A stretch of DNA of 64,000 nt from the NCBI RefSeq assembly GCF_004010195.1, contig NC_057759.1, positions 1,285,212 to 1,349,211 of the forward strand. Direction: 5' to 3'. Positions 18,715-58,869 of this stretch are shown in pieces. Both the position numbers and the translations under genes were made by a program. Positions within the stretch are counted from its first letter, which is position 1. Every line of letters begins with the position of its first letter. A model generated the notes under the pieces. The model did not search any database and was not told the DNA's origin. It worked only from the letters and a program-made list of their open reading frames with translations. The DNA comes from Chiloscyllium plagiosum. Lineage: Eukaryota.

Positions 18715-19677
18715 NNNNNNNNNNNNNNNNNNNNNNNNNNNNNNNNNNNNNNNNNNNNNNNNNNNNNNNNNNNNNNNNNNNNNNNNNNNNNNNNNNNNNN
18801 NNNNNNNNNNNNNNNNNNNNNNNNNNNNNNNNNNNNNNNNNNNNNNNNNNNNNNNNNNNNNNNNNNNNNNNNNNNNNNNNNNNNNNNNNNNNNNNNNNNN
18901 NNNNNNNNNNNNNNNNNNNNNNNNNNNNNNNNNNNNNNNNNNNNNNNNNNNNNNNNNNNNNNNNNNNNNNNNNNNNNNNNNNNNNNNNNNNNNNNNNNNN
19001 NNNNNNNNNNNNNNNNNNNNNNNNNNNNNNNNNNNNNNNNNNNNNNNNNNNNNNNNNNNNNNNNNNNNNNNNNNNNNNNNNNNNNNNNNNNNNNNNNNNN
19101 NNNNNNNNNNNNNNNNNNNNNNNNNNNNNNNNNNNNNNNNNNNNNNNNNNNNNNNNNNNNNNNNNNNNNNNNNNNNNNNNNNNNNNNNNNNNNNNNNNNN
19201 NNNNNNNNNNNNNNGGAGAGAGAAAGAGAGGGGGACGGATCTGGTTGAGTGGAGACGGGGGAACGGGGTAGAGAGGTGAATTCTGCTGAAAGCGAGGTCA
19301 GAGCGGGGGACCCAGAGGAGAAAGCGAGGAGACAGTGACTTGAACCAAACTCCTGGGCTCGGGCCCGATCACCTCCACTTTCGTGTGGACCAGGACATGG
19401 GGCTGAGCGTATCTATCTCCTGCTCAGCTTTCTCAACACAAAAACAAACAGCAGTATCGTTCAGTCTCTGTTTTGCAATTTATAATTAACAGTTTTAATG
19501 TTTACAAATGGAAGTGAGTGGGATGGTGACTTTTCTCACTGGCCCCTGAGTTGAAAGGCATATTGAAATCTGTTCTAACTCCATGTAGGATAAGGTTGGA
19601 CAAACTAACGCGACCCTCAGTCTGGTGACTCATTGCTGAAACACTGAACTGATATGAGAAAATCTCGGATGGATTGA

Positions 19678-20585
19678 TTAATGAGTGAATTTGGTTGACT
19701 GATAAATTGGGGTCGAGGGACATTTCAGCACATTCTTCAGTTGCTGTCTGAACTTCGTCTGGGTAATGCCATAAATCGTGGTGTTTGTGCAGCAACGGAG
19801 GAGCTGCAGCATGAAGCCTAATTCCCGCACAAAGGCATGTAGAAACACACCGGTATTCACAATATATGACATCCGTCTCCATAGTGAAAACGCCATTAAC
19901 GTTGACCATAACAGGATGAAATTGGCCGAGATCACAATCAGTAAAATGTTGGATTTTTTTCGATTTCTCATTTCTGTGTCAGACTGAGCGTCCCCATTTT
20001 TATGGGCCCGGACTCTCCTGCGTGCTCTGCTGGTCACTAAAATGTGTCTGACGGTGAAAAGATTGAGCAGCAGAATCAGGAGAAATGGGAGAGGCGGTGT
20101 TAGAATGTTATGGAGGAACCCAATTGTGAGCCAGGCACGGGAGAAAAGAACATCGATTGTTACCAAACAAAACCAGGGCACGTTCCCCAGCCAATACCGT
20201 GCTTTGAGCATAAACTACCAGAAAGTGTTCTTTGAACAGCTCAGCACAATCACTGTTCCCAAAACCACAGTCGCCGTTTTCTCACTGCAATATTTACTTT
20301 TCAGCTTCTGGAGACAAATGGCCACAAATTGATCAAAGGTCAAAGTGACTGTGAACCAGACAGAACAGTCAGTGGCTGCATAAAGCAGGACGGCGTGGAT
20401 ATTACACAGGTGGATTGACTCCAGGAAATAAAACTGCTCCTTATAAACAATGGGAATGTGTCTCAATATCAGGTCGAGGATAATGACCAGTAGGTCCGCT
20501 ATTGCCATAGCTCCCAGGTAACGTCTGACACATGGAGACAATCCACAATCTTTAGAAAGCAGGACATATACCGTCACTACGTTAA
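19678..20585 (-). pseudogene. GPR139/GPR142-like class A GPCR, exon 2 (end of TM1 to TM7), with an in-frame stop
   Basis: YLGAMAIADLL (TM2), DCSVWFTVTLTFDQFVAIC (TM3), ILTPPLPF (TM5), CCTNTTIY..TQTKFR (TM7/H8). The two ORFs are in one frame, separated by TGG TAG TTT at 20217-20215. Acceptor tttccttcctcacag|TTAAC, phase 1. Confidence 0.9.
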
Positions 20586-21145
20586 CTGTGAGGAAGGAAA
20601 ACAAACAAATTATGCATCAGCCTGGAGGCAAAGTTACCAGTTTAATTTAGGATCCAGTGAGAATCACAACTGTACCACACTATGCAGAGATTTTTTAAAA
20701 TAGTTGAAGATGAAATAACATGCAGGAAGGTCTGAATTAATGACAAAAATGTGTCATAAAACATAAGAAATTCTCCCTCCCCAAACACACAGAAATACAT
20801 CCATAAGAACAGATGGTTTCTTGGAACATTTTCACTAACTCATTCACTCGAGAGCAGACACAGGTCAGTTCTTTACAGTTCCCAATACGGATTGTGAAAA
20901 CGTTGCTAGCCCGAAGTATTCTCCCCCAATTCCTTGAAGACAAATCGAGGTTGGAGACTTCTGTCTTTTAGTATAAATTATGGTAGATCCTCTGTTATGA
21001 AGAAATGTAACGAAAGGGAAAAGCATTCACTGATTTAAATGCCTGAGGGACGTCGGAAGAGTGTCTCCTTCTCCCTGGAATTGGACCTGTTCCATCTTTT
21101 GTTCAATTCATTGACGTCCAGTCACTCATAAATAATGACACTGAC

Positions 21146-26727: not shown

Positions 26728-27052
26728 ACATACAATCCCTACAGTGTGGAAACAGGCTCTTCCATCCAACAGGTTCGCTCTGACTCTCTGAAGAGTAACA
26801 CAACCCCCTGCATTTACGCCTGACTAATGCATCTAACCTACAAATCCCTGAATACTATGGACAATTTAGCATGGCCAATTTACCTAACCTGCACATCTTT
26901 GAATAGTGGGAGGAAACCAGAGCACCCGGAGAAAACTCACGCAGATAATGTGGACACTCCACACAGAGAATCACCCGCAGGTGAGAATCGAATCCGGGTC
27001 TCTAGCGCTGCGAGGCAGGAATGCTACCCACTGAACCATCGTGCTACCCCAG
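26728..27052 (-). mobile_element. HE1-type V-SINE with 8-bp TSD
   Basis: V-SINE body; GGTAAATG at 26720-26727 and 27053-27060. Confidence 0.9.
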
Positions 27053-27122
27053 GGTAAATGCCCATGATATGTTCAAGTGTATCCCAGATCACTGAGGGAA
27101 TGTGGGGAAGAACTTGCAGGGA

Positions 27123-28162
27123 CTTGGGGGAGGGGCGTTGGGAATGCGATAGGTGGAAGGAGGTTAAGGTGAGGGTGATAGGCTGGAGAGGGGGTGGGGG
27201 CGGAGAGGTCAGGAAGAAGATTGCAGGTAAAAAAGGCGGTGCTGAGTCCGAGGGTTGGGTCTGAGAAAAGATGGGGGGAGGGGAAATGAGAAAGCTGGAG
27301 AAATCTGCATTCATCCCTTGTGGTTGGAGGGTTCCTAGGCGGAAGTTGAGGCACTCCATTGCCATGGTCTGGCGATGGAGGAGGCCAAGGGCCTGCATGT
27401 CCTTGGCGGAGTGGGAGGGGGCGTTAAAGTGTTCAGCCACAGGGCGGTTGGGTTGGTTGGTGCGGGTGTCCCAGAGGTGTTCTCTGAAACGTTCCGCAAG
27501 TAGGCAGCCTGTCTCCCCAATATAGAGGAGGCCACATCGGCTGCAGCGTGTGCAGTAAATGATGTGTGTGGAGGTGCAGGTGAATGTGATGGATATGGAA
27601 GGATCCCTTGGGGCCTTGGAGGGAAGTGAGGGGGGAGGTGTGGGCGCAAGTTTTGCATTTCTTGCGGTTGCAGGGGAAGGTGCCAGGAGTGGAATTCAGG
27701 TCCTTGACCTCCTCCATCTCCAGACTATGGCAACACGACGCCTAGAGGAAGAGCGCCTCATCTTCCACCTTTGAACCCTCCAACCACAAAGGATGAATGC
27801 AGATTTCTCCAGCTTCCTCATTTCCCCTCCCCCCACCTTTTCTCAGTCCCAACCCTCGGACTCAGAACCGCCTTCTTGACCTGCAATCTTCTTCCCGACC
27901 TCTCACCCCCACCCCCCTCTCCAGCCTATCACCCTCACCTTAACCTCCTTCCACCTATCGCATTCCCAACGCCCCTCCCCCAAGTCCCTCCTCCCTACCT
28001 TTTATCTTAGCCTACTTGGCACACTTTCCTCATTCCTGAAGAAGGGCTTATGCCCGAAACGTCGATTCTCCTGCTCCTTTGATGCTGCCTGACCTGCTGC
28101 GCTTTTCCAGCAACACGTTTTTCAGCTCTGATCTCCAGCATCTGCAGTCCTCACTTTCTCCT
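27123..28162 (+). mobile_element. 5'-truncated Penelope-like element (Neptune-like GIY-YIG) with an inverted 5' segment
   Basis: Minus arm 27118-27693 encodes PGTFPCNRKKCKTC and the GIY-YIG region; plus arm 27694-28162 encodes RRLEEERLIF then the pLTR ending CTCACTTTCTCCT; TSD agaac(t/g)tgcaggga at 27109-27122 and 28163-28176. Confidence 0.9.
28036..28063 (+). ncRNA. Minimal hammerhead ribozyme core in PLE pLTR
   Basis: CTGAAGA-A-GGGC-TTAT-GCCC-GAAAC-GTC: CUGANGA and GAAA boxes, 4-bp stem II, palindromic ACGU stem III, GUC site. Confidence 0.75.
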
Positions 28163-28212
28163 AGAACGTGCAGGGAACCTACTGATATATTTGTATCATT
28201 CCTTGGGTGTTT

Positions 28213-32803: not shown

Positions 32804-33021
32804 TAAAGCTCAGCAGGTCAGGCTGCAACTGAAGAATAGGAGAGTCGAAAATCGAGCATACGCTCTTCATCAAGAATGTTGGCACCATTTGTGATAAAGA
32901 GCTTGTGCTAGAAAAGTCTACTGTCCTGCTCCTCGGTTGCTGCCTGACCGGCTGTGTTTTTCCAGTACCACACTTTTTGACTCTGATCTCCAGCATCTGC
33001 ATCTGCAATCCTCACTTTCGC
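32804..33021 (+). mobile_element. Old head-to-head PLE pLTR pair
   Basis: Minus copy 32804-32878 and plus copy 32891-33021 ending ctcactttcgc; decayed hammerhead cores. Confidence 0.8.
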
Positions 33022-33813: not shown

Positions 33814-34137
33814 TCATAGAATCCCTACAGTGTGGAAACTGCCCCTTCGGCCCAACAAGTCCACACTGATCCACACCCAGACCCATTCTCCCTATCCTAC
33901 ATTTACCCCTGACTAATACACCTAACTACACATCCCTGAAAACTATGGGCAATTTAGAATAGCCAATTCAACTAACCTGTACATCTTTGGACTGTGGACA
34001 GAAGCCAGATAATCCAAAGAAAACCCACGCAGACATAGTGAGAATGTACAAACTCCACATAGGCAGTCACCCAAGTCTGGGATTGAAGCCGGGTCTCTGG
34101 TTCTGTCAGGCAACATTCTAAACTGAGCTACCATGCT
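33814..34137 (-). mobile_element. HE1-type V-SINE inserted in an antisense CR1 (33215-34410)
   Basis: V-SINE body and tail; CR1 RT motif FSKAFD on the flank. Confidence 0.85.
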
Positions 34138-34408
34138 CTATTAACCCCAGGGCTATCACCACCACTCATCTTTTCAAATGAGACCACATTAGCTGTTCTC
34201 CAGTCCTCTGGCATCTCCAACTTCCCTGTGGCCAGATTCGACTTAAATATTTCGGTTATGGCTTTTCCTCCCTTGTCTCCACCAGCAGCCTGAGATACAA
34301 CTCATCCAGATCTGAAGATTGGTCAGCCAAAGCCTCCAGTTCCATCTTATATTAATCTGATGAAGAGCTTCCCAGTCCATATTCTGGAATTCTGTGCCTT
34401 CATCCTCC

Positions 34409-35041
34409 TTCTGGAATGATTCAAAAAATGAGAGGAGATTGCAGTGAAACTTATAAAATTCACACAGAGGGACCGACTAAAACAGGAGCGTGGAGAAGTG
34501 TTCTCAGGCAATGTTTGGAAGAATCCCAAGATATTCTGCAAGTATATTAAACAGAACAGATTAATGAGGGAACAATTATGGGCCTATTAAACACCAAGGC
34601 GACAATCTGGGTGTGACGGTGCGGACCGTTGATAGATCCTGAAGAAGGGCTTATGCCCGAAACGTCGATTCTCCTGTTCCCTGGATGCTGCCTGACCTGC
34701 TGCGCTTTTCCAGCAACACATTTTCAGCTCTGATCTCCAGCATCTGCAGACCTCACTTTCTCCTTCATCCTCCTTCTCCCAAGTAAAGCAGATGTAATGC
34801 TTTCATGTAACGATCTATCAACGGTCCGCAGCGTCACACCCAGATTGTCCCCTTGGTGTTTAATAGGCCCATAATTGTTCCCTCATTAATCTGTTCTGTT
34901 TGATATACTTGCAGAATATCTTGGGATTCTTCCAAACATTACCTGACAACACTTCTCCACGCTCCTGTTTTAGTCGGTCCCTCTGTGTGAATTTTATAAG
35001 TTTCACTGCAATCTCCTCTCATTTTTTGAATCATTACAGAA
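34409..35041. repeat. 230-bp inverted duplication (arms 34409-34638 and 34812-35041)
   Basis: Arms are reverse complements with about 6 mismatches and no indels by eye; near-identical ORF text LQNILGFFQTLP appears on both strands. Confidence 0.95.
34639..34763 (+). mobile_element. Short PLE pLTR element with intact hammerhead core (34639-34666)
   Basis: CTGAAGAAGGGCTTATGCCCGAAACGTC...CAGCATCTGCAGACCTCACTTTCTCC; 16-bp direct repeat CCTTCATCCTCCTTCT at 34397-34412 and 34762-34777. Confidence 0.9.
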
Positions 35042-35170
35042 CACAGAGTGATATTCCACATCAAATAATCTTGCATCTATGAAGACAGACATGAAAATAG
35101 CCGTGCAGTTTCTCTGTAATTTGCCAGTTCGCTGCAAGAAATTATCCTCTCTGAATATTCACCATTCCAC

Positions 35171-35474
35171 ATGGTGGCTGCACGGTTTGAGGCACTCTGC
35201 CTCACAGCGCCAGAGACTCGGGTTCAATTCCCGCCTCAGGCGACTGACTGTGTGGAGTTTGCACGTTCTCCCCGTGTCTGTGTGGGTTTCCTCCGGGTGC
35301 TCCGGTTTCCTCCCACAGTCCAAAGATGTGCACATCAGGTGAATTGGCCGTGCTAAATTGCCCGTAGTGTTAGGTAAGGGGTAAATGTAGGGGTATGGGT
35401 GGGTTGCGCTTTGGCGGGTCGGTATGGACTTGTTGGGCCGAAGGGCCTGTTTCCACACTGTAAGTAATCTAATC
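35171..35474 (+). mobile_element. HE1-type V-SINE
   Basis: V-domain and tail nearly identical to 6666-6993. Confidence 0.95.
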
Positions 35475-36489
35475 ACATGTGATCTTGCCTTCACTTCCCG
35501 TTCACGTCGCCCTTATGTTTCTTGTTAGTTTGCATTCTGTTTATTTTGATTTCCTTTTCAGTTCATTGGTCCTCCTTTGCTTGGTCCCAAATGTCTGTAA
35601 ATCCACGTCTTACCACAATATCTGGCATTTTAACGCCGTTTCTTTTTATCTAAAACAATCATAAATCTCTTTTGTTAACCACAATTGACTTACATTAATC
35701 TTTTGCTTTTTGCACTGTAGTGGGTAGTTTTATATTTGACATGTTACATTGTTTATTTAAACAAGAGCCATTCCCTGTCTTCTGTTACATCTTTTTCATG
35801 TACTTGTTCAATTCATTGAAGCCAACTTGCCCCTGACACTTTCATGGCTTATATGACTCATGTTTATAACTCGTTTAAAAATGTTTTGTATTCAGATGTC
35901 ATTAAAATTCAACATATTATGATCACTGTTCCAAAAATCTCCGTTACAGCAAAGTTTTCAATAAGCTCTTCTGATAACACAAGACCAATTCCAAAACAGC
36001 CTGATCTCTAGCTCGGTGATCAACATCATTAATGTGAACCTTCTCAAACACGGTCGTGAGATCATTTTTTCCAAGCGTCAGCATTCATATGATTCAACAT
36101 AGTTTAGTTATAACTTGAAGCTGTCCATTATTACTGCTGCTCCCACAAACCTGCATATCTAATTTCCTGTTTTACAACATGCCTAACATTTGTATTGCAG
36201 TTTTGACTTTGACTTAACACCCATCAATGTATGCTTCTGCTTGCTCTTTCTAAGCTCCACCTTCGCAGATTCTGTGGAACCTGAGCGACGTGGATCTGCG
36301 AAGATTAATGGCCGATTCACGTTTGGCGACGCCTATCTGGACGTTGAGATCATCTCATCATATCTTATTCGCTCTTTACAAGTGTCATTGTGATATTTTC
36401 ACCAAATCTCCCGTTATGCTGATGGAGTAAAGAACGGAAAAAATCTCTCATTCCTCCAGACAGCTGAGTAGTAACCATACGCCAGGCTG

Positions 36490-41889: not shown

Positions 41890-43540
41890 GCCAGAATTTC
41901 CCAGAAGACTGGAGGCTCGCAAATGTTTACTTTTACTTAAGAAGGGTTGCAAAGAGATACCTGAGAGCTGTAGACCAGCAAGTGTAATATCTGTGTCAAG
42001 TAGTTTAGTTGAGAAGATTCTGAGAGAAAACATATATATATATTTTGGAAGACAGGGTTTGATGAAGAGTCATCAGCATGGCTTTGTGCGTGGAAGATCA
42101 TGCCTCACAAATTTGTGCTTTGATGAAGTGACTAGAAAGCTGTCGAGGGCAAAATGGTAGGCTCAGTCTACCGTTATGGAGGCGAAAGTGAGACCTGCAG
42201 ATGCTAGAGATTAGAATCGAGAGAGTGATGCTGTGTCAAGCAGTATCCGAGGAGCAGCAGAATCGACGGTTCGGACGTTGCTGTTGAAGGGCTTTTGCCC
42301 AAAACGTTGAATCTCCTGGTCTTTGGATGTTGCCTGACCTGCTGGGCTTTTTCAGCACCACAATCTCATTCGAGATGGAGTTCAGTAGAGCCTTCGATAA
42401 GGTTCCACATGACAGGCAGTTTGTAAAGTAATTTTGAATGGAATTCAGGAGGCACTGGCAAATTGGATAAACAACTGGCTTGATGGCGGGAAGCTGAGGG
42501 CAACATTGGAAGGATATTTCTTGGATTGAAGGCCTGTGACGAGTGGTATGCCTCAGAAGTCAGTGCTGGGCACATTGCTGTTTGTTATCTATGTTTATAA
42601 AATTGCTGATAATGTACAAGGCATTATTAGTAAGTTTACTAATGACACTAAAATAGCAGGTATTGTGGACAGTGACGAAGGTTATCAAAAATTGAAGCAG
42701 GGCCTTTATCAGCTGGAGAAGTGGGCCAACAAATTGCAAATGGAGTTTAATATAGGTAAGTGCGACGTCTGGTATTTTGAAATGCAAATAAAATGATGAA
42801 TTTTATGGTGAATGGTATGGCCTTTGGAAGTGTAGTGGAACAAAATGACCTTAAATTTCAGGCACATGGTTCTCAGAAAGTGGACTCACAGATAGGCAGG
42901 GCAGTGAAGAAGATTAATGTCACACTGTCCGTCATCAATCAGGGCATTGAGTATAGTAGTTGGGAAGTTATGTTGCAGTTGTACAGGACGTTGATGAAAC
43001 TGCACTTAAATTGTTCTGTTCAGTTTTGGTCATCTTATTATTGGGAGGATTAATTAAACTGGAAAGAGTTGAGAAGAATTAACAAAGATGTTGCCTGACT
43101 CAATAGTTTGAGTTTAAGGGACTGGTTGGACAATCTAGGACTCTTCTCGTTAAAGCATAGGAGACTGAGAACTAATCTTATCGAGTTGTATAAGATCATG
43201 AGAGGCACGGATAGGGTGCGTGCACTCAATATTTTGCCCAGGGTTGGGGGCTCAATGACTAGATGGCATTAGTTCAAAGTTAACGTGGAAATAATAAAAG
43301 GGAATCCGAAGGGAAACTTTTGTATACAGAGGGCGGTACACATATGGAATGAATTGCCAGCAGAAGTAGTTGAGGTGGATAAATGAACAAAGTTTATAAG
43401 GCATTTGGACAATGACATGGATAGGAAAGGTTTAGAAGGGTATGGGCCAAGTGTTAGTGTGGATGGACAATTTTGTCAGGACGGACCAGTTTGGGCCAAA
43501 GTGCTTGTCTCCGTGTGTGGGCCTCTATGGCTCTATAAAT
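41890..43540 (+). mobile_element. CR1 RT to 3' end, interrupted by a PLE pLTR pair
   Basis: QHGFVRGRSCLTNL, SGMPQKSVLG, KFTNDTKI; tail gcttgtctccgtgtgtgggcctctatggctctat. Confidence 0.9.
42178..42367 (-). mobile_element. Head-to-head PLE pLTR pair
   Basis: Minus copy 42178-42276 with the complete 3' end; plus copy 42281-42367 starting ctgttgaagggcttttgcccaaaacgtt. Confidence 0.8.
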
Positions 43541-43930: not shown

Positions 43931-46522
43931 AGAGTCATAGAGATGTACAGCATGGAAACAGACCCTTCAGTCCAATCCGTCCATGCTGACCGGATATTCC
44001 AAGCCAATCTAGTCCCACCTGCCAGCACACGGCCCATATCCCTCCATCCCTTCCTATTCATATACACATCCAGATGCCTCTTTAATGTTGCAATTTAACA
44101 AGCCTCCACCACTTCCTCTGGCAGCTCATTCCATACACGTACCACCGTCTGCGTGAAAAATTTGCCCCTTAGCTCTCTTTTATATCTTTCCCCTCTCACC
44201 CTAAACCTATGCCCTCTAGTTCTGGGCTCCCCGACCCCAGGGAAAATATGTTGTCTATTTATTCTATCCATGCCCTTCATAATTTTGTAAACCTCTATAA
44301 GGTCACCCCTCAGCCTCCGACACTTCAGGGAAAACAGCCCCAGNNNNNNNNNNNNNNNNNNNNNNNNNNNNNNNNNNNNNNNNNNNNNNNNNNNNNNNNN
44401 NNNNNNNNNNNNNNNNNNNNNNNNNNNNNNNNNNNNNNNNNNNNNNNNNNNNNNNNNNNNNNNNNNNNNNNNNNNNNNNNNNNNCATGCAATATTCCAAC
44501 AGTGGCCTAACCAATGTCCTGTACAGCCGCAACATGACCTCCCAACTCCTGTACTCAAAATTCTGAACAATAAAGGAAGGCATACCAAAGGCCATCTTCA
44601 CTATCCTACCGACCTGCGATTCCACTTTCAAGGAGCTATGGACCTGTACGCCAAGGTTCAGCAACAGTCCCTAGGACCTTACCATAAAGTGTATAAGTCC
44701 TGCTAAGATTTGCTTTCCCAAACTGCAGCACTTCGCACTTGTCTGAATTAAACTCCATCTGCCACTTCTCAGCCCATTGGCCCATCTGGTCCAGGTCCTG
44801 TTGTAATCTGAGGTAACCCTCTTCGCTGTCTACTACACCTCCTATTTTGGTGTCATCTGCAAACTTACTAACTGTACCCCTTATGTTCGCATCCAATTCA
44901 TTTATGTCAATGACAAAAAGTAGAGGACCTAGCACCGATCCTTGTGGCACTCCACTGGTCACAGGCCTCAAGTCTGAAAAAACAACCCTCCATCACCACC
45001 CTCTGTCTTCTACCTTTGAGCCAGTTCTGTATCCAAATGGTTAGTTCTCCTTGTATTCCATGAGATCTAACCTTGTTAATCAGTCTCCCGTGGGGAACCT
45101 TGTCGAACGCTTTAGTGAAGTTCATATAGATCACATCTACTGCTCTTCCCTCATCAATCTTCTTTGTTATTTCTTCAAAAAAAAACTCAAGTTTGTGAGA
45201 CATGATTTCCCACGCACAAAGCCATGTTGACTATCCCTAATCAGTCCTTGCCTTTCCAAATACATGTGCATCCTGTCCCTCAGGATTCCCTCCAACAACT
45301 TGCCCACCACTGAGGTCAGGCTCACTGGTCTATAGTTCCCTGGCTTGTCTTTACCGCCCTTCTTAAACAGTGGCACCACGTTTAACAACCTCCAGTCTTC
45401 CGGCAGCTAACCTGTGACTATCGATGATGCAAATATCTCAGCAAGAGGCCCAGCAATCACTTCTCTAGCTTCCCACAGAGTTCTCGGATTCACCTGATCA
45501 GGTACTGGGGATTTATCCACCTTTAACCATTATAAGACATTCAGCACTTCCTCCTCTGTAATCTGGACATGTTGCTAGATGTCATCCTTTTATTTCCCTA
45601 CAGTCTATATCTTCCATATCCTTTTCCACAGTACATACTGATGCAAAATATTCAATTAGTATCTCCCCCATTTTCTGTGGTTCCACACAAAGGCCGCCGT
45701 GCTGGTCTTTGAGGGGCCCTAATCACTCCCTTTTGTCCTTAATTTATTGGTAAAAACCCTTTGGATTCTCCTTAATTCTATTTGCCAAAGCTATCTCATG
45801 TCCCCGTTTTTCCCTCCTGATTTCCCTCATAAGTATACTCCTACTTTCGTTCTACTCTTCTCAGCATTCATTCGATCTATCCTGTCTATACCTGACATGT
45901 GCTTCCTTCTTTTTCTTAACCATACCCTCAATTTCTTTAGTCATCCAGCATTCCCCATACCTACCAGCCTTCCCTTTCACCCTGACAGGAATATACTTTC
46001 TCTGAATTCTTGTTATCTCATTTCTGAAGGCTTCCCATTTTCCAGCCGTCCCTTTAACTGCGAACATCTGCCTCCATTCAGCTTGCCTAATACCGCCAAA
46101 AGTGGCCCTTCTCCAATTCAGAATTTCAACTTTTAGATCGCTCTATCTTTTTCCATCACAGTTTTAAAACCAATAGAATTATGGTCTCTTGTCCCAAAGT
46201 GCTCCTCCACGAACACTTCAGTCACCTGCCCTGCCTTATTTCCCAAGAGTAGGTCAAGTTTTACACCTACTCTGGTTGGTACATCCACATACTGAATCAG
46301 AAAATTGTCTTGTTCGCACTTAAGAAATTCCTCTCCATCTAAACCTTTCACACTATGGCAGTCCCAGTCGACGTTTGGAAAGTTTGGAAAGTCGCCTACC
46401 ATAACTACTCTGTTATTCTTACAGATAGCTGAGATCTCCTTACAAGCTTGTCTCTCAATTTCCCTCTGACTATTAGGGTGTCTATAATACAATCCCAATA
46501 AGGTGATCATCCTTTTCTTATT
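43931..46522 (-). mobile_element. Young 5'-truncated CR1 (HER1-like) LINE nested in an older plus-strand CR1 (43680-43930 / 46523-47020)
   Basis: Endonuclease tail (VMVGDFPNF, LDLLLGN, DHN), NYRPVSLTS, KAFDKVPH, GVPQGSVLGPLLF, KFADD; frameshifts; spans the 141-N gap. Confidence 0.95.
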
Positions 46523-49071: not shown

Positions 49072-50613
49072 ACAATTGTCAATCTAAAAACTATCTCTGG
49101 GCACAACTGCGGATTTCGCTGAACTCCGCTCCCACTGCTGTAAAAAGGCAATATTGCATCTTTAACAATAATTTGTTTATAAGGTGAAAACATGTTATTG
49201 CACAGTTTATATGCCTTTTTTCAGATTTTCTGGCCTTAGCCCAAAAGCAAATGTTGCATTTACAAATGCTATGTTCATTGGGATAAAAGAATCAGAGACA
49301 GAATGTATATCTCATTGGTTAAGGAACAGAAAGGAATATGAGACAGTACGTGTGGTGACTGGAGAGGATTAAAGTGATATCGCTCAGTCACCAGTTGATA
49401 CACATCTTGATACACAGAATAAAATAAAATGCAGGGATATAAATAGAATAAATTTGGAACAAGTAATGGCGAGTGCCAATGCAAATTAAACAGTGTAATT
49501 CGAAATGGAAGACAAGAAATGATTTAATATACACTGTTTAATCACTGTTTGTGCCGATAGATAAAATTGGTCATATGTGCAGAACCCTTCATTTATAATT
49601 TATGTAACATTAAACCTTTAATTGATCCTCAGACGAGTTCTTACATTTCCAATTTCTGTGATTCCCTGGCCAAGACACTCATTCTATTCGGGATATATAT
49701 TATATTATTCAGCTCCTCGTATCCCAACCTATTTCAACCAACCGCCTTTCTACCAGGAAATAAATGCTTTATCCTGCTGGGATCTATCACAACTTGTGTC
49801 GTCATATTATTGGATATAAAAGTTGTTGCTTTCGATCCAGAAGTTCAACATGTTACTCTGTTGTACTGCCACTGTACAAAGGATCACATTACACGGGAAT
49901 TGCCAGAACAAATAGAGAAGTCTACTTCTGTCGATAACCTAGTTTTCACTATTTTATTAATTTTCTCCTTATTATATCTGCTCCCTCTCTTTCTCTCTTG
50001 GTAGCCAGTTAATAAATCCTCCAATTGGTTTCGGTGCCTTATCTCTCAAAACTCCTTCTGTCAGTTCATATCTATTGGTAACACTTGGTTGGAAAGTGAT
50101 TGCAATTGAAAAACATAACTGAAAAAAAACAAGGGGCATGAGCTGGCCAGAGTTTATTGAAGGGCGAGCCTAGCAGGGAAGATGGTGAAGCAGCAATGAC
50201 AGGAGTCATTCGGACACAGCTGAAAATCATCTGAACGAAGAAGATGCATACTCAGGGAGGGCAAGGTAAATCTGGATGATAAGGGGAGTCAGGGACAGCA
50301 ATTAACCAAAAGCAAAAGTTAAAATGTGGTGAAGTTATTGAAAATCTAGGGGATGAATATAGAGGAGAACTAGTTCAAGTAATAGGGAGGATTAGATGAA
50401 ATACGACGGTAAGCTTTTTAATAATCTAACAGAAGATTGCAAGAGTTTTAGGATAAATAACAGCGAAGAGAGGCAAGCAAGAGGAAAGAAACTGTTGCAA
50501 AGTGGGCCTAGAATACTTATGGGAAACAATGAATTGGCAGAGAAAGTGAATACATGTTTTGCACCCGTCTTTACAGTAGAAGACGCCAGCAATCTGACAG
50601 AACATCAAGAGAG

Positions 50614-53522
50614 GTGAAAATGTGTACTGCAGATGCTGGAGATGAGAGTCAAGAATCTGGTGCTGGAAAAGCGCAGCAGGTCAGGCAGCGTCCGAGGAGC
50701 TGGAAAATCGACGTTTCGGGCGAAAGCCCATCATCAGGAATGAGGCTGGAAGCCTAGGGGTTGGAGAGGTAACTGGGAGGGGGTGGGGCTGGGGGCAAGG
50801 TAGCTGACAGTGCAATAAGTGAATGGAGATGGAGGTAAAGGTGGGAGAGGGGGATGGAGTGGATAGATGGGAAGGTGAACAGATTGATCGGATCATGAGG
50901 TTGGTGCTGAGCTGGAAGGTTGGACCTGGGGGTGAAATGAGGAAACTGGTCAAATCCCCATTGATGTCATGGGGTTGCAGGGTCCCAAGGTGGAAGATGA
51001 CGCGTTTTTCCTCCAGGATTTTGGTGGTCAGGGAGTGACAATGGTGGAGGCCCAGGATCTGCATGTCCTCAACAGAGTGAAAGGGGGAGTTGAAGTGTTC
51101 GGCCATGGGGCGGTAGGGTTAATTAGTGTGGCTGACCCAGAGATGTTCTCCTAAGTGCTGTGTGAGTAGACATCCTGTCTCCCCAATGTATAACGCATCG
51201 GAAGCAGGATGGAAGGAGGTGTAATTCAGGTAGCTGTGGGTTTTCAGACAATGTCAATTTTGTGTCGGTCAACGTTGATAGAGATGGAGAGATCCAGGAA
51301 AGGACGAGGGGTATCAGAGATAGTCCGGATGAATTTAAGGTCGGGGTGGATTGTGGTGGTGAAGTTGATGAACTGTTCAACAACCTCGAGAAGCATCAGG
51401 TGGCGTTGATGCAGTCATCAATGTAGTGGAGGCAAGGTAGGGGAATGGTCCTGTTGTAACTGCAGAATACAGGCTGTTCCACATAGCCAACAAAGAGACA
51501 GGCACAGCTGGGGCCCATGCGGGTGACCATGCCCACCCCTTTCGTCTGGACGAAGTGGGAGGATTCGAAGGAGAAATTGTTGACGATGAGGACCAGTAAA
51601 GCCAAACTAATACGAGTGTCAGTGGAAGGGTACTAGTGGGGACTTTGGGAGAGGAGGAAACGGTGGGTTTGGAGGCTCCGATCATTGTGGATGGAGGTCT
51701 ATAGGGACTAGATGTCCAGGGTAAAGATGAGGCATTGGGGGCCAGGGAACGGACGTGTTGGAGGAGATTGCGGGCGTGGGTGGTGTCCCGAACGCATGTG
51801 GGCTTCTTCGACCGGGGGGAGAGGACGGTATCGAGATATGTGGAGATGAATTCTGAGGGGCTGGAGCAGGCAGAGATGATAAGTCATTCGGGGTAGTCAG
51901 GATTGTGGATCTTGGGTAGGAGGTAGACTCGGGCTGTGTGGGGTCTTGAACTATAAGGTTGGAAACTGTGGGTGGGAGATCCCCTTAGGTGATTAGTTTG
52001 TGTACGTTTGAGGAAATGATGGTTTGGTGATGAGAGATGAGGTCATGGTCGAGGGGATGATGGTTTGGTGATGAGAGGTGAGGTCATGGTCGAGGGGCCA
52101 GTAGGAGGAGATAACTTCAAGTTGGCGCCTGGCATCAGCGGTGTCGAGGTCAGTGCACCAAGCTACCACTGCAAGATCACCCCCCCCCCCCCCACACACA
52201 CACACCCCACCCCCGTCAGCTGGTTTGATGGTGCGTTTGGGTTGGTGCAGAGGGAGTGTAGAGCTGGACGTTGTGAGGATGATACGTTGGAGTGGGGAGG
52301 GGTTTGGACAGTTTGAAGTGATAAAATGTCTCGGCAGCAATTGGAAATATAGAGGTCGAGGGCTATTTACAGACCGTCACAGGGTATTCACGTGGATGGG
52401 GTATATTGCAGTCGAGCAAAGGTGCCCTCATAAGATGTGCAGGAGTCTTAATTGTAAAAAAAAAGCTCGCTGAGAGAGGCAGCAGAAAAAGTTTTCAACG
52501 TCATAATGCGTATTGAATTTATTGATGCATGAATGCAGGGGGTTGAAGATAAGGCCTTTGCTGAAGACTGGTCATTCTTTCTCATTGAGGGGGAAGTCTG
52601 AGGGGGGAAGGTGAAAACTCGCAGGGCTGGGAGCAAGGAGCGGTTTTATGGCTGGAGCTGGGAGTGAGGGCGCACACTGTAACTGGAGTGGGTGCGGGAG
52701 TGGGGTGAACGGGGCTAATGTCATTTGCAGAGATGATGCTCACCCCGGCGTTCTTGGAATGGGGGGAGTTGACAGTGTGATCCGTGGGGCCCGTGTCGCG
52801 TGTGTATAGTGGCATAAATGTGGGTAGAAGTGGTTGTGATGATGGCAGCTGTGGGGTCAGAAGTGGCAAAACGTGTGATGTAGGTGATGTCAGTGGAGGT
52901 GGAAGTGGCTGCGGCAATGATCACAAACTGGGCAGAAGTTGTAGGACATATGGCGTGGCTGATGGAGGAAGGTACAGACGTGGCTGCGGCAGCACAACAG
53001 TGGGGGCAGAAGTGTAGTTCCAGTTGAGCTTGTGTTTGTCTCAGTGGTGGCGGATCTCATAGTGATTGTGGCAGTGGTTGTATGGCCATCAGTCACGGAG
53101 GCGGCATGAGGAGCCGTGGCTGCAGCCTGTCGGGCGGCGGGGACGGAGATGGCGTCGATTACTGCAGTGATGGTGGCTGGCAAAGCCTCGCGGCTGTCGC
53201 CAGCCAAGCAGCTCTGGAGGCCGGGTAAGCTTCTGGAATGTTCGAGGAATGCTGACAGTTGAGGTGGATATATGAAAGTTTTTTTTTATACTTACAGTAT
53301 TTAATGCTTAAATGGTGTAGAAATATTGTTTTTAATTTTATAAATTCTTCTGAGGATAAAATGCAGTAGGGTCCTTTGCAATTCTGAGAGCGTGTGGCCC
53401 TCAGCTGAGAGAGGGCTGACTGTAGATCAATAAAGTGGAGGCGCATGGATGCGACTGTGGAACGGAGGATCCGAAGAAAAACCGTTGCTGGAAGTTTTGA
53501 ATTTGTACTCTTTATTGGTTGT
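50614..53522 (-). mobile_element. Long degenerate Penelope-like element (N-terminal region, RT, GIY-YIG C-terminus, pLTR) inserted in an old CR1
   Basis: RT motifs FSFESSHFVQTKGVGMVTRMGPSCACLFVGYVE and YIDDCI; AEHFN...LEEKRVIFHLGTLQP; hammerhead core at 50737-50710 (CTGATGATGGGCTTTCGCCCGAAACGTC); degenerate TSD aacatcaagagag / aactacatgagag. Confidence 0.9.
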
Positions 53523-53849
53523 AACTACATGAGAGTCAGGAGGCAAAACTGAATGTAGTGACCACCACTAATGAGTAAGGTTAAAGCTCTGAAGCTGAAT
53601 ATTCACGCAGAACAGTTTGACTACACGCTCTAGTTCTAAGGAGTTGGCTGTTGAGATTTTGAGGGCATTGCTGGTGATCTTCGATGAATAATTGGAATCA
53701 GGAAGGGTCCCAGAGGACTGTCGAATATAACCCCCACCCACACAACCCGTTTAAGAAGAGAGGACGCAGAAGACAGCTAGTTATATGTGGTCAGGAAATT
53801 TGAAACTGTTGTTAGGAGGTAATAACGCCAGATAATTGACACGTTCTCC

Positions 53850-54720
53850 ATTTCTTCGCACTCCAACACACATCTTCCAGGTGAAGCAACATTTACTGGC
53901 ACTCTTTCACTCCAGTCTCCTGTCATTGCTTCTCACAATGCAGCCTACTTTCCTGAGACCAAACAGAGACTGCTTTCTGGAGCACTTTCACTCTGTCTGT
54001 AGGAAAAATTCTGAGCTTCTCATTCCTTTCCATTTCAATAACCAACATTACTTTCATGCTAACATTTCGATCCTGGGCTGATGCAATGTTCCAATGAAGT
54101 ACACCTTAAGCTTGAGTAACACCAACTTTACAACTTGATACGTTACAACATTTAATTCCACAACATCACAGCCGGAACCCATCATGACTGTTTTCCATTT
54201 TTCATACATTCTCGCTTCTGGTCTTCTGATGAACTTAACTTTTCATCTTGCACTTAATAGAACACATTCACGTTTTTCGCAAGTGCCCATTTCCCACATT
54301 CACAAAATAATTTCCACCCAATTTACATCTGTTTCTCTTTCACCACAATTTAAAAAAAACATTGTCCTTTGAAATACATTTTTTTTCCCATCATCCAACT
54401 CCACCTCTGACGGTATTAGAAAACATATTTCCCACTTTTTTTTCAGTTCTGAAGAAGTATCATGTCGGTCGTGAAATGTTGAGACTGTTTTCTGTCTCCA
54501 CAGATGCTGCCAGACCTGCTGACTTTCTCCAGAGATGGACAGGCAAGGAGATACTTCCAATAAAGATTTCTGCATCCCGGGAATCCAAAACAAAATTAAA
54601 ACTTGCTGCAGAAACTGGGAACTTTGACAAAGGGCCACTCGACCGAAAGTTTAAGTCTGCATTCACTCGGCAGATGGTGACAGACCTGTTTAGTTTCTCC
54701 AGCAATTTCTGGTTTTGAAC
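53850..54720 (+). mobile_element. Very old PLE GIY-YIG fragment and two second-subtype pLTRs (54447-54532, 54623-54718)
   Basis: FQVKQH...HFN remnants; tctgaagaag...gaaatgtt...acagatgctgccagacctgctga. Confidence 0.6.
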
Positions 54721-55950: not shown

Positions 55951-56789
55951 ATTTCCGATTGATCCCCATGTGGAGATGGCGCTGTTGTGAAAATGTGACT
56001 GGATTACTAATGCAGACCACTTTAATGTTCTGGCAGCTGGTGGATATTAAAAAAAAATCGAGATCTAAAATCTGGTGTTAGTAATAATGATCTGTAAGCC
56101 AATGGCGATTGTGAACACCAATTTGCTTCTGCAACGTACTTTTAGGAAGCAAATTTCCTGTGCTTTCCTGGTCTGGCTTAAAACTGACTCCAGACAAACA
56201 GACATGCGATTAATTCTCAATGGTCTCTGAAAAGGCCAAACAAGACACTCAATTGTATCAAATTTTTCTGTTGTCTTAACGTACACCCAACACCAGCCTC
56301 GGTACTGGTAAAAGGAATGAGAAGCACAATCCTGTTGATCCTGCAGAGACTGCTATCCTAACTTCTGAGAGCTTGTGACAACGACTACAGACATTTCCAA
56401 CGGACTGCAAAGAAACATCAGGAAGGAGTAGGTCATTCAACACATTGATACTCTGCCCATTCTAGGTCATGGTCAAGTATCTCTTCAGTGCAATTTTCCC
56501 ACACAAATTACACACTCCGTAATGCAATTACAAACATAAAATATATGCCATTAACAGCAGTTGTGGCTTTAGTCCATTGGTTTCGCTCCCCCAGTAAACA
56601 TAATGGTGACTGATCATATTTTCTAGACTCCTGCTCTCGCCTGATAACCTTCGAGTTGAGAAATCCTGATTTATATTGAGTGCCTTAGCTTCCAAAGCCG
56701 TATGTGGGAAAGAATTCCCTAGCTTCACCAGTCTCTCAGCGCAGACATTTAGTCTCATCTAAATGCAGAGTGGCCTGCCTGTTCCTCAT

Positions 56790-58869
56790 AGAGAAAGGCT
56801 TGGCAGAACGGATTAGGGAGAACACAAAGGCATTTTACACTTATATGAGGAATAAGAGCATGGTCAAAGAAAGAATAGGGCCGATGAGGAATAGCATAGG
56901 GAATTTGTGTGTGGAGTCTGGGGAGGCAGGGGAATCCCTAAATGAGTTTTTTGCTTCTGTCTTTTCGAAAGAAACGAACTTTGTAGTGAATGAAACCTTT
57001 GAAGAGCAGGTGTGCATGCTGGAATGGATAGAGATGGAGGAAGCTGATTTGCTGAAAATTTTGACAAGCATTAAGATTGCCAAGTCGCCAGGCCCAGACC
57101 AGATTTGTCCTCGGCTGCTTTGGGAAACGAGAAATGCAATTGCTTGGCCACTTGCGAACATCTTTGCATCCTCGCTCTCCACTGGAGTCGTACCTGAGGA
57201 CTGGAGAGAGGCAAATGTAATTCCTCTCTTCAAGAAAGGAAATAGGGAACTCCTCGGCAATTACAGACCAGTAAGTCTCACGTCTGTCGTCTGCAAGGTG
57301 TTAGAAAGGATTCTGAGGGATAGGATTTATGACCATCTGGAAGAGCTGAAAATGTGTTGCTGGAAAAGCGCAGCAGGTCAGGCAGCATCCAAGGAACAGG
57401 AGAATCGACGTTTCGGGCATAAGCCCTACTTCGGGCTTATGCCAGAAACGTCGATTCTCCTGTTCCTTGGATGCTGTCTGACCAGCTGCGCATTTTAAGC
57501 AACACATTTTCAGCTCTGATCTCCAGCATCTGCAGTCCTCACTTTCTCCTCGACCATCTGGAAGAGAATGGAAATGTGTTGCTGATTAAATGCAGTCAAC
57601 ACGGCCTTGTGAGGGGCAGGTCTTGCCTCACAAAAATATCGAGTTCTTTGAGGATGTGACTAGAAACGTTGATGAGGGTCGAGCTGTGGATGTGGTGTAT
57701 ATGGACTTCAGCAAGGCATTTGATAAGGTTCCCCATAGTATGCTCATTCAGAAGGTCAGGAGAAATGGGATACAGGGAAACTTAGTTATCTGGATACAGA
57801 GAAACCTAGTTGTCTGGATACAGAATTGGCTGGCCAACAGAACACTGTGAGTGATAGTAGAAGGAAAATATTCTACCTGGAAGTCTGTGGTGAGTGGTGT
57901 TCCATAGGGCTCTGTCCTTGGACTCTACTGTTTGTAATTTTTATTAATGACTTGGATGAGGGGATTGAAGGATGGATCAGCAATTTTGCAGACGACACAA
58001 AGGTTGGAGGTGTTGTTGATAGTATAGAGGGCTGTTGTATGCTGCAGCGGGACATAGACAGGATGTAGAGATGGGCTGAGAGGTGGCAGATGGAGTTCAA
58101 CCTGGATAAATGCGAGATGATGCATTTTGGAAGGTCGAATTTGAACGCTGAGTACAGGATTAAGAATAGGATTCTTGGCAGTGCGGAGGAACAGAGGGAT
58201 CTTTGTGTGCAGGTACATAGATCCCTTAAAGTGGCCACCCAAGTGGACAGGGTTGTTAAGAAAGCATATGGTGTTTTGGCTTTCATTAACAGGGGGATTG
58301 AGTTTAAGAGTCGTGAGATCTTGTTGCAGCTCTATAAAACTTTGGTTCGACCGCACTTGGAATACTGCGTCCTGTTCTGGTCGCCCTATTATAGGAAAGA
58401 TGTGGATGCATTGGAGAGAGTTTAGAGGAGGTTTACCAGGATGCTGCCTGGACTGGAGGGCTTATCTTATGAAGAGAGGTTGACTGAGCTCGGACTTTTT
58501 TCATTGGAGAAAAGGAGGAGGAGAGAGGACCTAATTGTGATGTACAAGATAATGAGAGGCAGAGATAGAGTCGATAGCCAGAGACTATTGCCCATGGCAG
58601 AAATGACTAACACGAGGGGTCATAGTTTTAAGCTGGTTGGAGGAAAGTATAGAGGGGATGTCAGAGGCGGGTTCTTTACACAGAGAGTTGTGAGAACATG
58701 GAATGCGTTGCCAGCAGCAGTTGTGGAAGCAAGGTCTTTGGGGACATTTAAGAGACTACTGGACATGCATATGGTCACAGAAATTTGAGGGTGCATACAT
58801 GAGGATCAGTGGTCGGCACAACATCGTGGGCTGAAGGGCCTGTTCTGTGCTGTACTGTTCTATGTTCTA
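56790..58869 (+). mobile_element. Young 5'-truncated CR1 (HER1-like) LINE
   Basis: KSPGPDQI, NYRPVSLTS, DFSKAFDKVPH, NFADDTK, RPHLEYCV; tail gaagggcctgttctgtgctgtactgttctatgttcta; several stops and frameshifts; inserted in an older antisense CR1. Confidence 0.95.
57346..57551 (+). mobile_element. Fold-back PLE pLTR insertion with perfect 15-bp TSD
   Basis: Minus arm 57342-57427, plus arm 57433-57550 ending CTCACTTTCTCCT; GACCATCTGGAAGAG at 57331-57345 and 57552-57566. Confidence 0.92.

Follow-up and report, generated by a model that had tools for sequence, protein, structure and literature searches.

The window, by which we mean the whole 64,000-nt stretch of Chiloscyllium plagiosum DNA analyzed here, contains the truncated 3' end of a Penelope-like element (PLE) that was inserted into an old LINE fragment together with an inverted copy of about 226 bp of the LINE sequence just downstream. 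A single insertion event, by one of two related routes of copying, very probably produced both parts. The insertion is a neutral, dead product, and we regard it as a rare repair scar in which the PLE, the primed side and the long loop are new within a known class of insertion by-products.

A repeat search of the window found identical 16-mers at 34397-34412 and 34762-34777, confirming the pair of 16-bp direct repeats (target site duplications, TSDs) proposed in the initial annotation. The pair encloses the inverted arm and the PLE end. The locus is composed of the following features, where X1, X15 and X19 are sequencing runs.

34140 to 34396, minus strand: left flank, a decayed LINE ORF2 fragment and the target of the insertion (tblastn match at 34259-34137, E 5e-4; colinear with two LINE copies of the window)
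34397 to 34412: left TSD, 13-16 bp, sharing its final 4 nt with the source arm's outer end (junction bridged by X1 and X15 contigs)
34413 to 34638, minus strand: derived arm, an inverted copy of 34812-35037 whose last 2 nt are common with the element (enclosed by the TSDs; X1 and X15 contigs carry the letters of this arm)
34637 to 34764, plus strand: 128-bp pLTR, the 5'-truncated 3' end of a Penelope-like element of GIY-YIG type (95% like the terminal part of the 28034-28162 copy; X19 family depth 56,000-102,000)
34639 to 34666, plus strand: minimal type I hammerhead core, predicted to cut after 34666 (from sequence, with stem II in the fold and features as in the available text of PMC4209133)
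34728 to 34764, plus strand: PLE 'tail', 37 nt (the inverted arm of the insertion at 57331 stops at the equivalent of 34727; read joints at 34728/34730)
34762 to 34777: right TSD (repeat search)
34778 to 34811: uncopied spacer, 34 bp, of the same LINE fragment, with a 6-bp DNA hairpin at 34785-34803
34812 to 35041, plus strand: source arm, an original part of the LINE fragment (colinear with the spacer, one TSD and the left flank in comparison with two LINE copies)

The arms of the inverted repeat (34409-34638 and 34812-35041) are 230 nt long and 97% complementary, with 173 nt between them. They match each other with a blastn E-value of about 1e-108, and the single further match of the arm in the window is a 70% LINE remnant. 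The mismatches, first estimated at about six, number exactly six of 230 places (34414, 34503, 34509, 34548, 34600 and 34619). The described inverted copy of 34812-35041 is thus present in full as a pair of arms, but the part that was copied without ambiguity is 224-226 bp (source 34812 to 35037). It lies 34 bp beyond the right TSD, as had been noted. The pLTR does directly adjoin the copy; yet its 3' end is at 34764 and not 34761, as family reads depart after 34763/34764 and sibling copies agree, which makes it 128 bp instead of 125 bp. Since 3 nt are therefore common to element and TSD, the TSD measures 13-16 bp. Both reported junction microhomologies were found, with 4 nt at the outer (TSD/arm) junction and 2 nt at the inner (arm/element) junction. 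The chance of at least that much homology at a random junction is 1.7% for the former and 16% for the latter, so that the 2-nt homology is at chance level and, taken alone, no evidence.

Three of the six arm differences (34503, 34600 and 34619) are C/G transversions, compared with 8.8% among X19 variant places (post hoc P 0.011). The LINE copies of the window gave no polarity for the six differences, being 65-70% identical, and two copies disagree at 34600. Around the locus, a 300-bp SINE-like repeat is present in two opposite copies (33817-34137 and 35171-35475; 72-77%), which form a second, imperfect inverted repeat enclosing the hairpin.

As an internal substitute for an empty-site test, we removed the insert in silico and aligned the remainder to LINE copies. 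With 34413-34777 deleted, the sequence aligns colinearly across a single 16-mer to the LINE copy at 56787-57241, with a score of 122.5 against 51.5 for the best of 100 shuffles. Without joining, the right arm, spacer and TSD align to 132-390 of a second LINE copy, and the TSD and left flank to 409-663. Colinearity with two LINE copies indicates that the target was one old LINE fragment in which the 16-mer, present once before the insertion, was duplicated, and that the left arm was copied from the original right arm. Nearby copies of the target LINE repeat, which we take to be CR1-like, have RVT_1 and endonuclease domains. The source of the arm had been termed host DNA; the local template and the left arm as the copy are borne out, but the template was a decayed LINE fragment.

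The element was initially described as a ribozyme mini-element, and this has to be replaced: what is present is a truncated 3' end from a PLE family of autonomous type that numbers about 10^5 copies. The sequence 34637-34764 matches 11 other places in the window, representing at least eight further insertions. One of these, at 28034-28162 (95%), directly follows the C-terminus of an endonuclease frame. The related stretch 27027-27695 has a Pfam GIY-YIG match below the curated cut-off (E 0.0093) and Atlas feature matches of 0.94 to GIY-YIG clusters. A CX4CX2C motif is located upstream of GIY-YIG in the arm at about 27123-27700, and CX2-5CxxC in this position is given as a mark of Neptune, Nematis and Naiad in the available text of PMC8557442. 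The element is thus the pLTR end of an EN+ PLE, probably of the Neptune type, with Neptune chosen over Nematis by vertebrate range. Its 37-nt tail is within the 30-40-bp range of PLE tails. In a decayed PLE copy at 51100-52400, RT-like motifs can be recognized by eye, with no Pfam match there. An older subfamily is represented at 50612-54532 on the minus strand by a decayed PLE that is almost full-length and contains pieces resembling RT and GIY-YIG.

The X19 depth of 56,022 at 34738-34760, from 1,934 million letters, corresponds to about 87,000-145,000 copies if the genome size is assumed to be 3-5 Gb. Loose letters before 34637 are found in 37,816 X19 reads, and their consensus corresponds to PLE body at an agreement of only 0.57; short copies starting near 34637 are common in the family. 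At least 935 X19 reads (in the ten rows listed) switch strand at the 5' edge of the element; head-to-head arms are a habit of this PLE family, as the available texts of PMC3846280 and PMC8557442 describe for PLEs. Two scans of metagenome contigs with pLTR patterns returned no stretches. Non-LTR retrozymes, in which tandem units each carry a type I hammerhead (available text of 10.64898/2026.07.22.740005), were considered as an identity for the element and rejected, as a single unit between TSDs rules them out.

Two further insertions of the same PLE subfamily in the window have clear TSDs.

27109 to 28176, plus strand: 14-bp TSD (one mismatch), inverted 5' arm of PLE body, 5-nt outer microhomology
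57331 to 57566, plus strand: 15-bp TSD, head-to-head inverted pLTR pair, 4-nt outer microhomology

The latter consists of an inverted pLTR without the 37-nt tail, followed by a forward pLTR. In the former, the arm (about 27123-27700) overlaps the forward piece by about 290 bp and then continues about 300 bp further 5'. Arm and forward piece are 92.9% identical over 239 bp (86.8% over 296), plus a 15-bp gap. Being longer than the forward piece and divergent from it, this arm was not copied from its own cDNA, and 27109-28176 would thus combine two different templates in one insertion. In all three clear-TSD insertions, the focal one included, the inverted piece meets the 3' end of the TSD with 4, 4 and 5 nt of homology; this count covers three of nine insertions, with six older copies of absent or doubtful TSD left out. 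The focal insertion therefore has the usual layout of the family, with local DNA in the slot of the inverted arm. A search of other pLTR copies for flank-derived segments had been suggested, and among the nine pLTR 5' flanks in the window only the focal one matches nearby non-element DNA at high identity. One other flank has a 73% match between old LINE copies.

Some peculiarities of these copies are recorded here in their own right. In the right flank of 57331-57584, an exact 13-nt match to the beginning of the inverted arm lies 5 nt beyond the TSD, and this flank has about 8-9 extra bases in comparison with two other LINE copies; this may be either a small templated insert or an assembly error. 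The forward arm there has six differences from the inverted arm. Older head-to-head pLTR pairs are found at 32805-33019 and 42180-42368, with doubtful or absent TSDs.

Support for the locus was sought in independent reads. A run search with 34140-35170 listed 21 runs, 18 of them with some of that sequence, and four of the 21 (X1, X15, X19 and X5) were aligned at 85% likeness to 34140-34811, which contains the left arm and no right arm. The outer junction is bridged with no differences by an X1 contig at 34285-34444 (depth 6.4) and an X15 contig at 34339-34444 (depth 6.6). These are two samples of two studies, although X1 may be the source of the assembly. Left-arm letters at 34503, 34509 and 34548 are present in further contigs from X1 (34415-34599, depth 10.7) and X15 (34415-34584). 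Both start just past the difference at 34414, and the X1 contig stops just before the one at 34600, so that these ends look like the forks expected of an assembly graph containing both arms. Summed contig depth at 34600-34622 is 12.8 in X1, 7 in X15 and 0 in X19 and X5. In the X19 raw reads, which represent about 4% of that run, depth is 0 at 34577-34622, and in X5 (organism B, word share 0.10; 85% likeness) neither the flank nor the arm is covered by a long piece. Among the 15 joints listed (613 others), the empty-site joint 34412-34778 does not appear. Unbroken X1 and X15 contigs through 34412 suggest that these samples have no empty allele there, with the qualification that assemblers drop variants. 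The insertion is probably common or fixed in the species.

An assembly artefact at a hairpin-prone repeat is nevertheless the first alternative to weigh. The arm/element junction is bridged by none of the 24 pieces listed (194,446 others), complex PLE insertions trouble short-read assemblies (available text of PMC8557442), and the window has three runs of N. These runs, of 500, 500 and 141 bases, are located at 2280-2779, 18715-19214 and 44344-44484, none of them near the locus. Against this, contigs from two studies cross the TSD/arm junction without differences and break where arms would fork, and an artefact is in our judgment extremely unlikely. The locus is real, with its inner junction supported by the assembly; the earlier argument against an artefact is therefore upheld by independent contigs for the outer junction, while the inner one is taken from the assembly.

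For the origin of the arm, the reading we prefer, at slightly better than even probability, is one PLE insertion in which the cDNA folded back onto its own resected downstream flank. The single event, the order of steps and the enzyme are what we infer. The PLE endonuclease would make a staggered cut (13-16 nt) in the old LINE, and reverse transcription from the bottom-strand end would copy 128 nt of the pLTR and halt at the 5' edge of the hammerhead. The top strand of the same DNA end would be resected. The 3' end of the cDNA would then fold back onto its own bottom strand, with a 173-nt loop and 2-nt pairing at 34812-34813, and either the PLE RT or a host polymerase would lengthen it by about 226 nt. 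Once freed, this strand would pair over 4 nt with the overhanging top strand at the left end, followed by fill-in and ligation with the TSD kept. The direction of these steps follows from the strands: the hammerhead and the endonuclease frame place the sense on the plus strand, so reverse transcription would have begun at the right, and the arm on the cDNA strand equals the downstream top strand, which points to the bottom strand joined to the cDNA as template. In favor of fold-back, one TSD pair holds both arm and element, and the siblings with 14- and 15-bp TSDs have an inverted piece in the same slot. The start of the copy only 34 nt from the cut is what a resected end would be expected to give. 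The arm divergence of 2.7% (95% range 1.0-5.8%) also fits the 2.3% (0.3-8.4%) between the pLTR and its nearest copy in the window, although this agreement is weak. Points against fold-back are the 2-nt pairing at chance level, a 3-nt site further down that was left unused, and the 173-nt loop in contrast to the small loops described for L1 inverted duplications, which arise at the reciprocal, upstream end in the available accounts. In addition, none of the contigs listed spans the inner junction, and neither an empty allele nor an ortholog appeared among the pieces and joints listed for the four runs.

The same single event may have run differently, with synthesis starting from the reciprocal left end, whose top-strand 3' overhang would pair over 4 nt with 35038-35041, either on the top strand of the downstream DNA or on a nascent plus-strand RNA. 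A host polymerase or the PLE RT would then extend this overhang in the direction of the cut before its 2-nt joining to the cDNA, as in PLE or L1 twin priming on a wrong, local template. We consider this possible, though clearly less probable than fold-back. All three measurable TSD-flanked insertions have 4-5 nt of outer homology (about 1.7% each by chance), but fold-back predicts this homology as well. The arm at 27109 cannot derive from its own cDNA; reaching beyond its own forward copy, it argues that the family can prime the other end independently, and so favors this course. In available published data, a PLE protein from Anolis cuts the two strands of its target in vitro and extends each of them (PMC11167929), and local pre-mRNA co-inserted with L1 is on record (PMC10191854). 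A weak point in its favor is the 6-bp spacer hairpin, at which copying could have stalled near 34812. On the other hand, the template needed is the strand normally resected at that end, and an RNA or sister template gives no reason for a stop 34 nt from the cut. Junction duplex energies of -4.0 and -3.9 kcal/mol do not separate the two courses. Two separate events are a more distant option and, we think, an improbable one: an ordinary truncated PLE insertion would have been followed later by template switching in replication, which added the inverted copy and may have replaced a longer 5' part. Short-range template switches are described as giving inverted copies without retroelements, but here the left breakpoint falls exactly at the 3' end of an intact TSD and the right one at the usual 5' boundary of the family, and the ages of arm and pLTR agree within wide error. 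Fold-back thus remains our leading model. It retains from the initial proposal, a jump of the cDNA onto nearby genomic DNA, the single event, the direction of copying and the local template, while the sequence alone cannot separate it from priming at the other end.

The hairpin and its hammerhead also raise the question of function. In the hammerhead core, an unpaired A precedes a stem II of 4 bp, and there is a G10.1-C11.1 pair as well as a palindromic 4-mer instead of helix III. The same features define the minimal dimer-type hammerhead, of which a single motif showed no cleavage in the available part of that study (PMC4209133), and the Anolis PLE hammerhead requires protein (available text of PMC11167929). 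Rfam at the gathering score gave no match in the whole 64 kb, and the predicted fold of the element by itself is no more stable than that of shuffled sequences (z -0.03). It had been claimed that the arm supplies a 3-bp stem I. This claim fails, as two of these three pairs already belong to the element and recur in the 28034 copy, there is no helix III, and the stem-I bases pair into the predicted duplex of the arms. What the arm adds is one A-U and one G-U pair in stem I (-0.9 in comparison with -0.3 kcal/mol). For a transcript of either strand through both arms, a duplex of 230 bp at about -450 kcal/mol is predicted, with the stem-I bases inside it.

The duplex and the two added pairs are what speaks for a functional or mobile hairpin-ribozyme unit, as a source of dsRNA or small RNAs or as an activated hammerhead. 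Such a unit is very hard to credit, however: the arm occurs at this locus only (contig depth 7-24 at 34577-34622, and no second locus in the window), it decays at 2.7% as LINE junk, stem I competes with the duplex, and monomeric minimal hammerheads did not cleave in the available text of PMC4209133. There is also no Pfam host gene within 13 kb, judged from 135 frames of at least 85 aa, a threshold at which short exons would be missed. A dsRNA role for the locus is accordingly unsupported. The only non-repeat Pfam matches among the 135 frames are two pieces of a 7-TM receptor 14 kb away. This single-exon rhodopsin-type frame (19678-20616, minus strand; Pfam 7tm_1 E 7e-9 and 1.7e-5) has one in-frame stop at about 20215 and is either a pseudogene or affected by a base error. 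At 34666-34669, X1 and X15 contigs (depth 47-90) link the predicted cut site to 34637 through 3-4 extra letters, possibly a trace of cleaved or circular RNA templates.

The locus itself is one dead insertion in junk DNA, and it matters only as an entry to a family-wide count. At an L1-like rate of 0.4% per insertion, one such case would be expected in about 4% of 64-kb stretches that contain nine PLE insertions each, and hence several cases in 153 stretches of this kind. With low confidence, we can suppose a rate well above 0.4%, if the PLE machinery in this genome routinely builds the 5' arm at the target by microhomology-primed copying of nearby templates, be they element RNA, other RNAs or local DNA. 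If this were true, the approximately 10^5 copies would be a main source of long inverted repeats of local DNA, numbering in the hundreds to thousands, and some of these would be transcribed into dsRNA or small RNAs. Flank-derived arms would then serve as a genome-wide fossil assay on the origin of the PLE inverted pLTR, at the target or by RNA self-priming. Published proposals for the inverted 5' arm are self-priming on antisense RNA (PMC3846280) and extension of both target strands (PMC11167929), according to the available texts. An arm of flank DNA can be made only after the target is cut, and this fossil therefore favors arm building at the target, at least here.

In a literature search with most subscription papers outside its reach, no flank-derived inverted arm in a PLE insertion was found. 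The insertion otherwise resembles canonical EN+ PLE insertions, in which a TSD, an inverted piece, a forward pLTR with a 37-nt tail and a second TSD follow each other and the pLTR contains a hammerhead (available texts of Arkhipova 2013, PMC3846280; Craig 2021, PMC8557442; Frangieh 2024, PMC11167929). It differs in that the inverted piece is local LINE DNA, in contrast to the 5'-truncated, element-derived piece of the canonical inverted-pLTR insertion. Host DNA capture by PLEs of Adineta vaga likewise places non-element DNA inside the TSD with the pLTR (available text of PMC3846280), although there the DNA lies between two pLTRs and was moved to a new site, whereas here there is one pLTR and the source is 34 bp away. 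Flank sequence copied during end joining is also seen in the flank-derived 5' extra nucleotides of zebrafish L2 LINEs (PMC4245944) and in the fold-back templated inverted duplications that are a general product of yeast break repair (PMC11724301). Those cases are mostly short (several nt and 5-34 bp, in the available texts) in comparison with 226 bp here.

The closest comparison is with L1. Foldback inverted duplications of target DNA, 52-220 bp long and upstream of the target, are reported for four somatic L1 insertions (0.3% plus 0.1%; Nam et al. 2023, PMC10191854, process C). Inverted duplications at the reciprocal end, with 2-bp homology and the TSD kept, are described by Mendez-Dorantes et al. 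(10.1101/2024.12.14.628481 Fig 4D,E, equivalent to PMC11702581 Fig S9C). The available text of the same work (PMC11702581; bioRxiv 10.1101/2024.12.14.628481) includes one inversion on the primary end and proposes, for an L1 foldback, that the cDNA annealed through its 3' end to the resected end from which it had been primed. The focal insertion shares with these a target-adjacent inverted copy at the 5' junction, a preserved TSD, a size near the range of about 50-220 bp and a 2-bp fold homology. The L1 cases come from somatic or cultured cells, are at the upstream reciprocal end and have a small loop, while the insertion described here belongs to a PLE, is inherited, and lies on the downstream primed side with a 173-nt loop that holds the element. 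The suggested route to local inverted duplications is thus real for this PLE but not new in kind, as L1 does something similar in the available text of PMC10191854.
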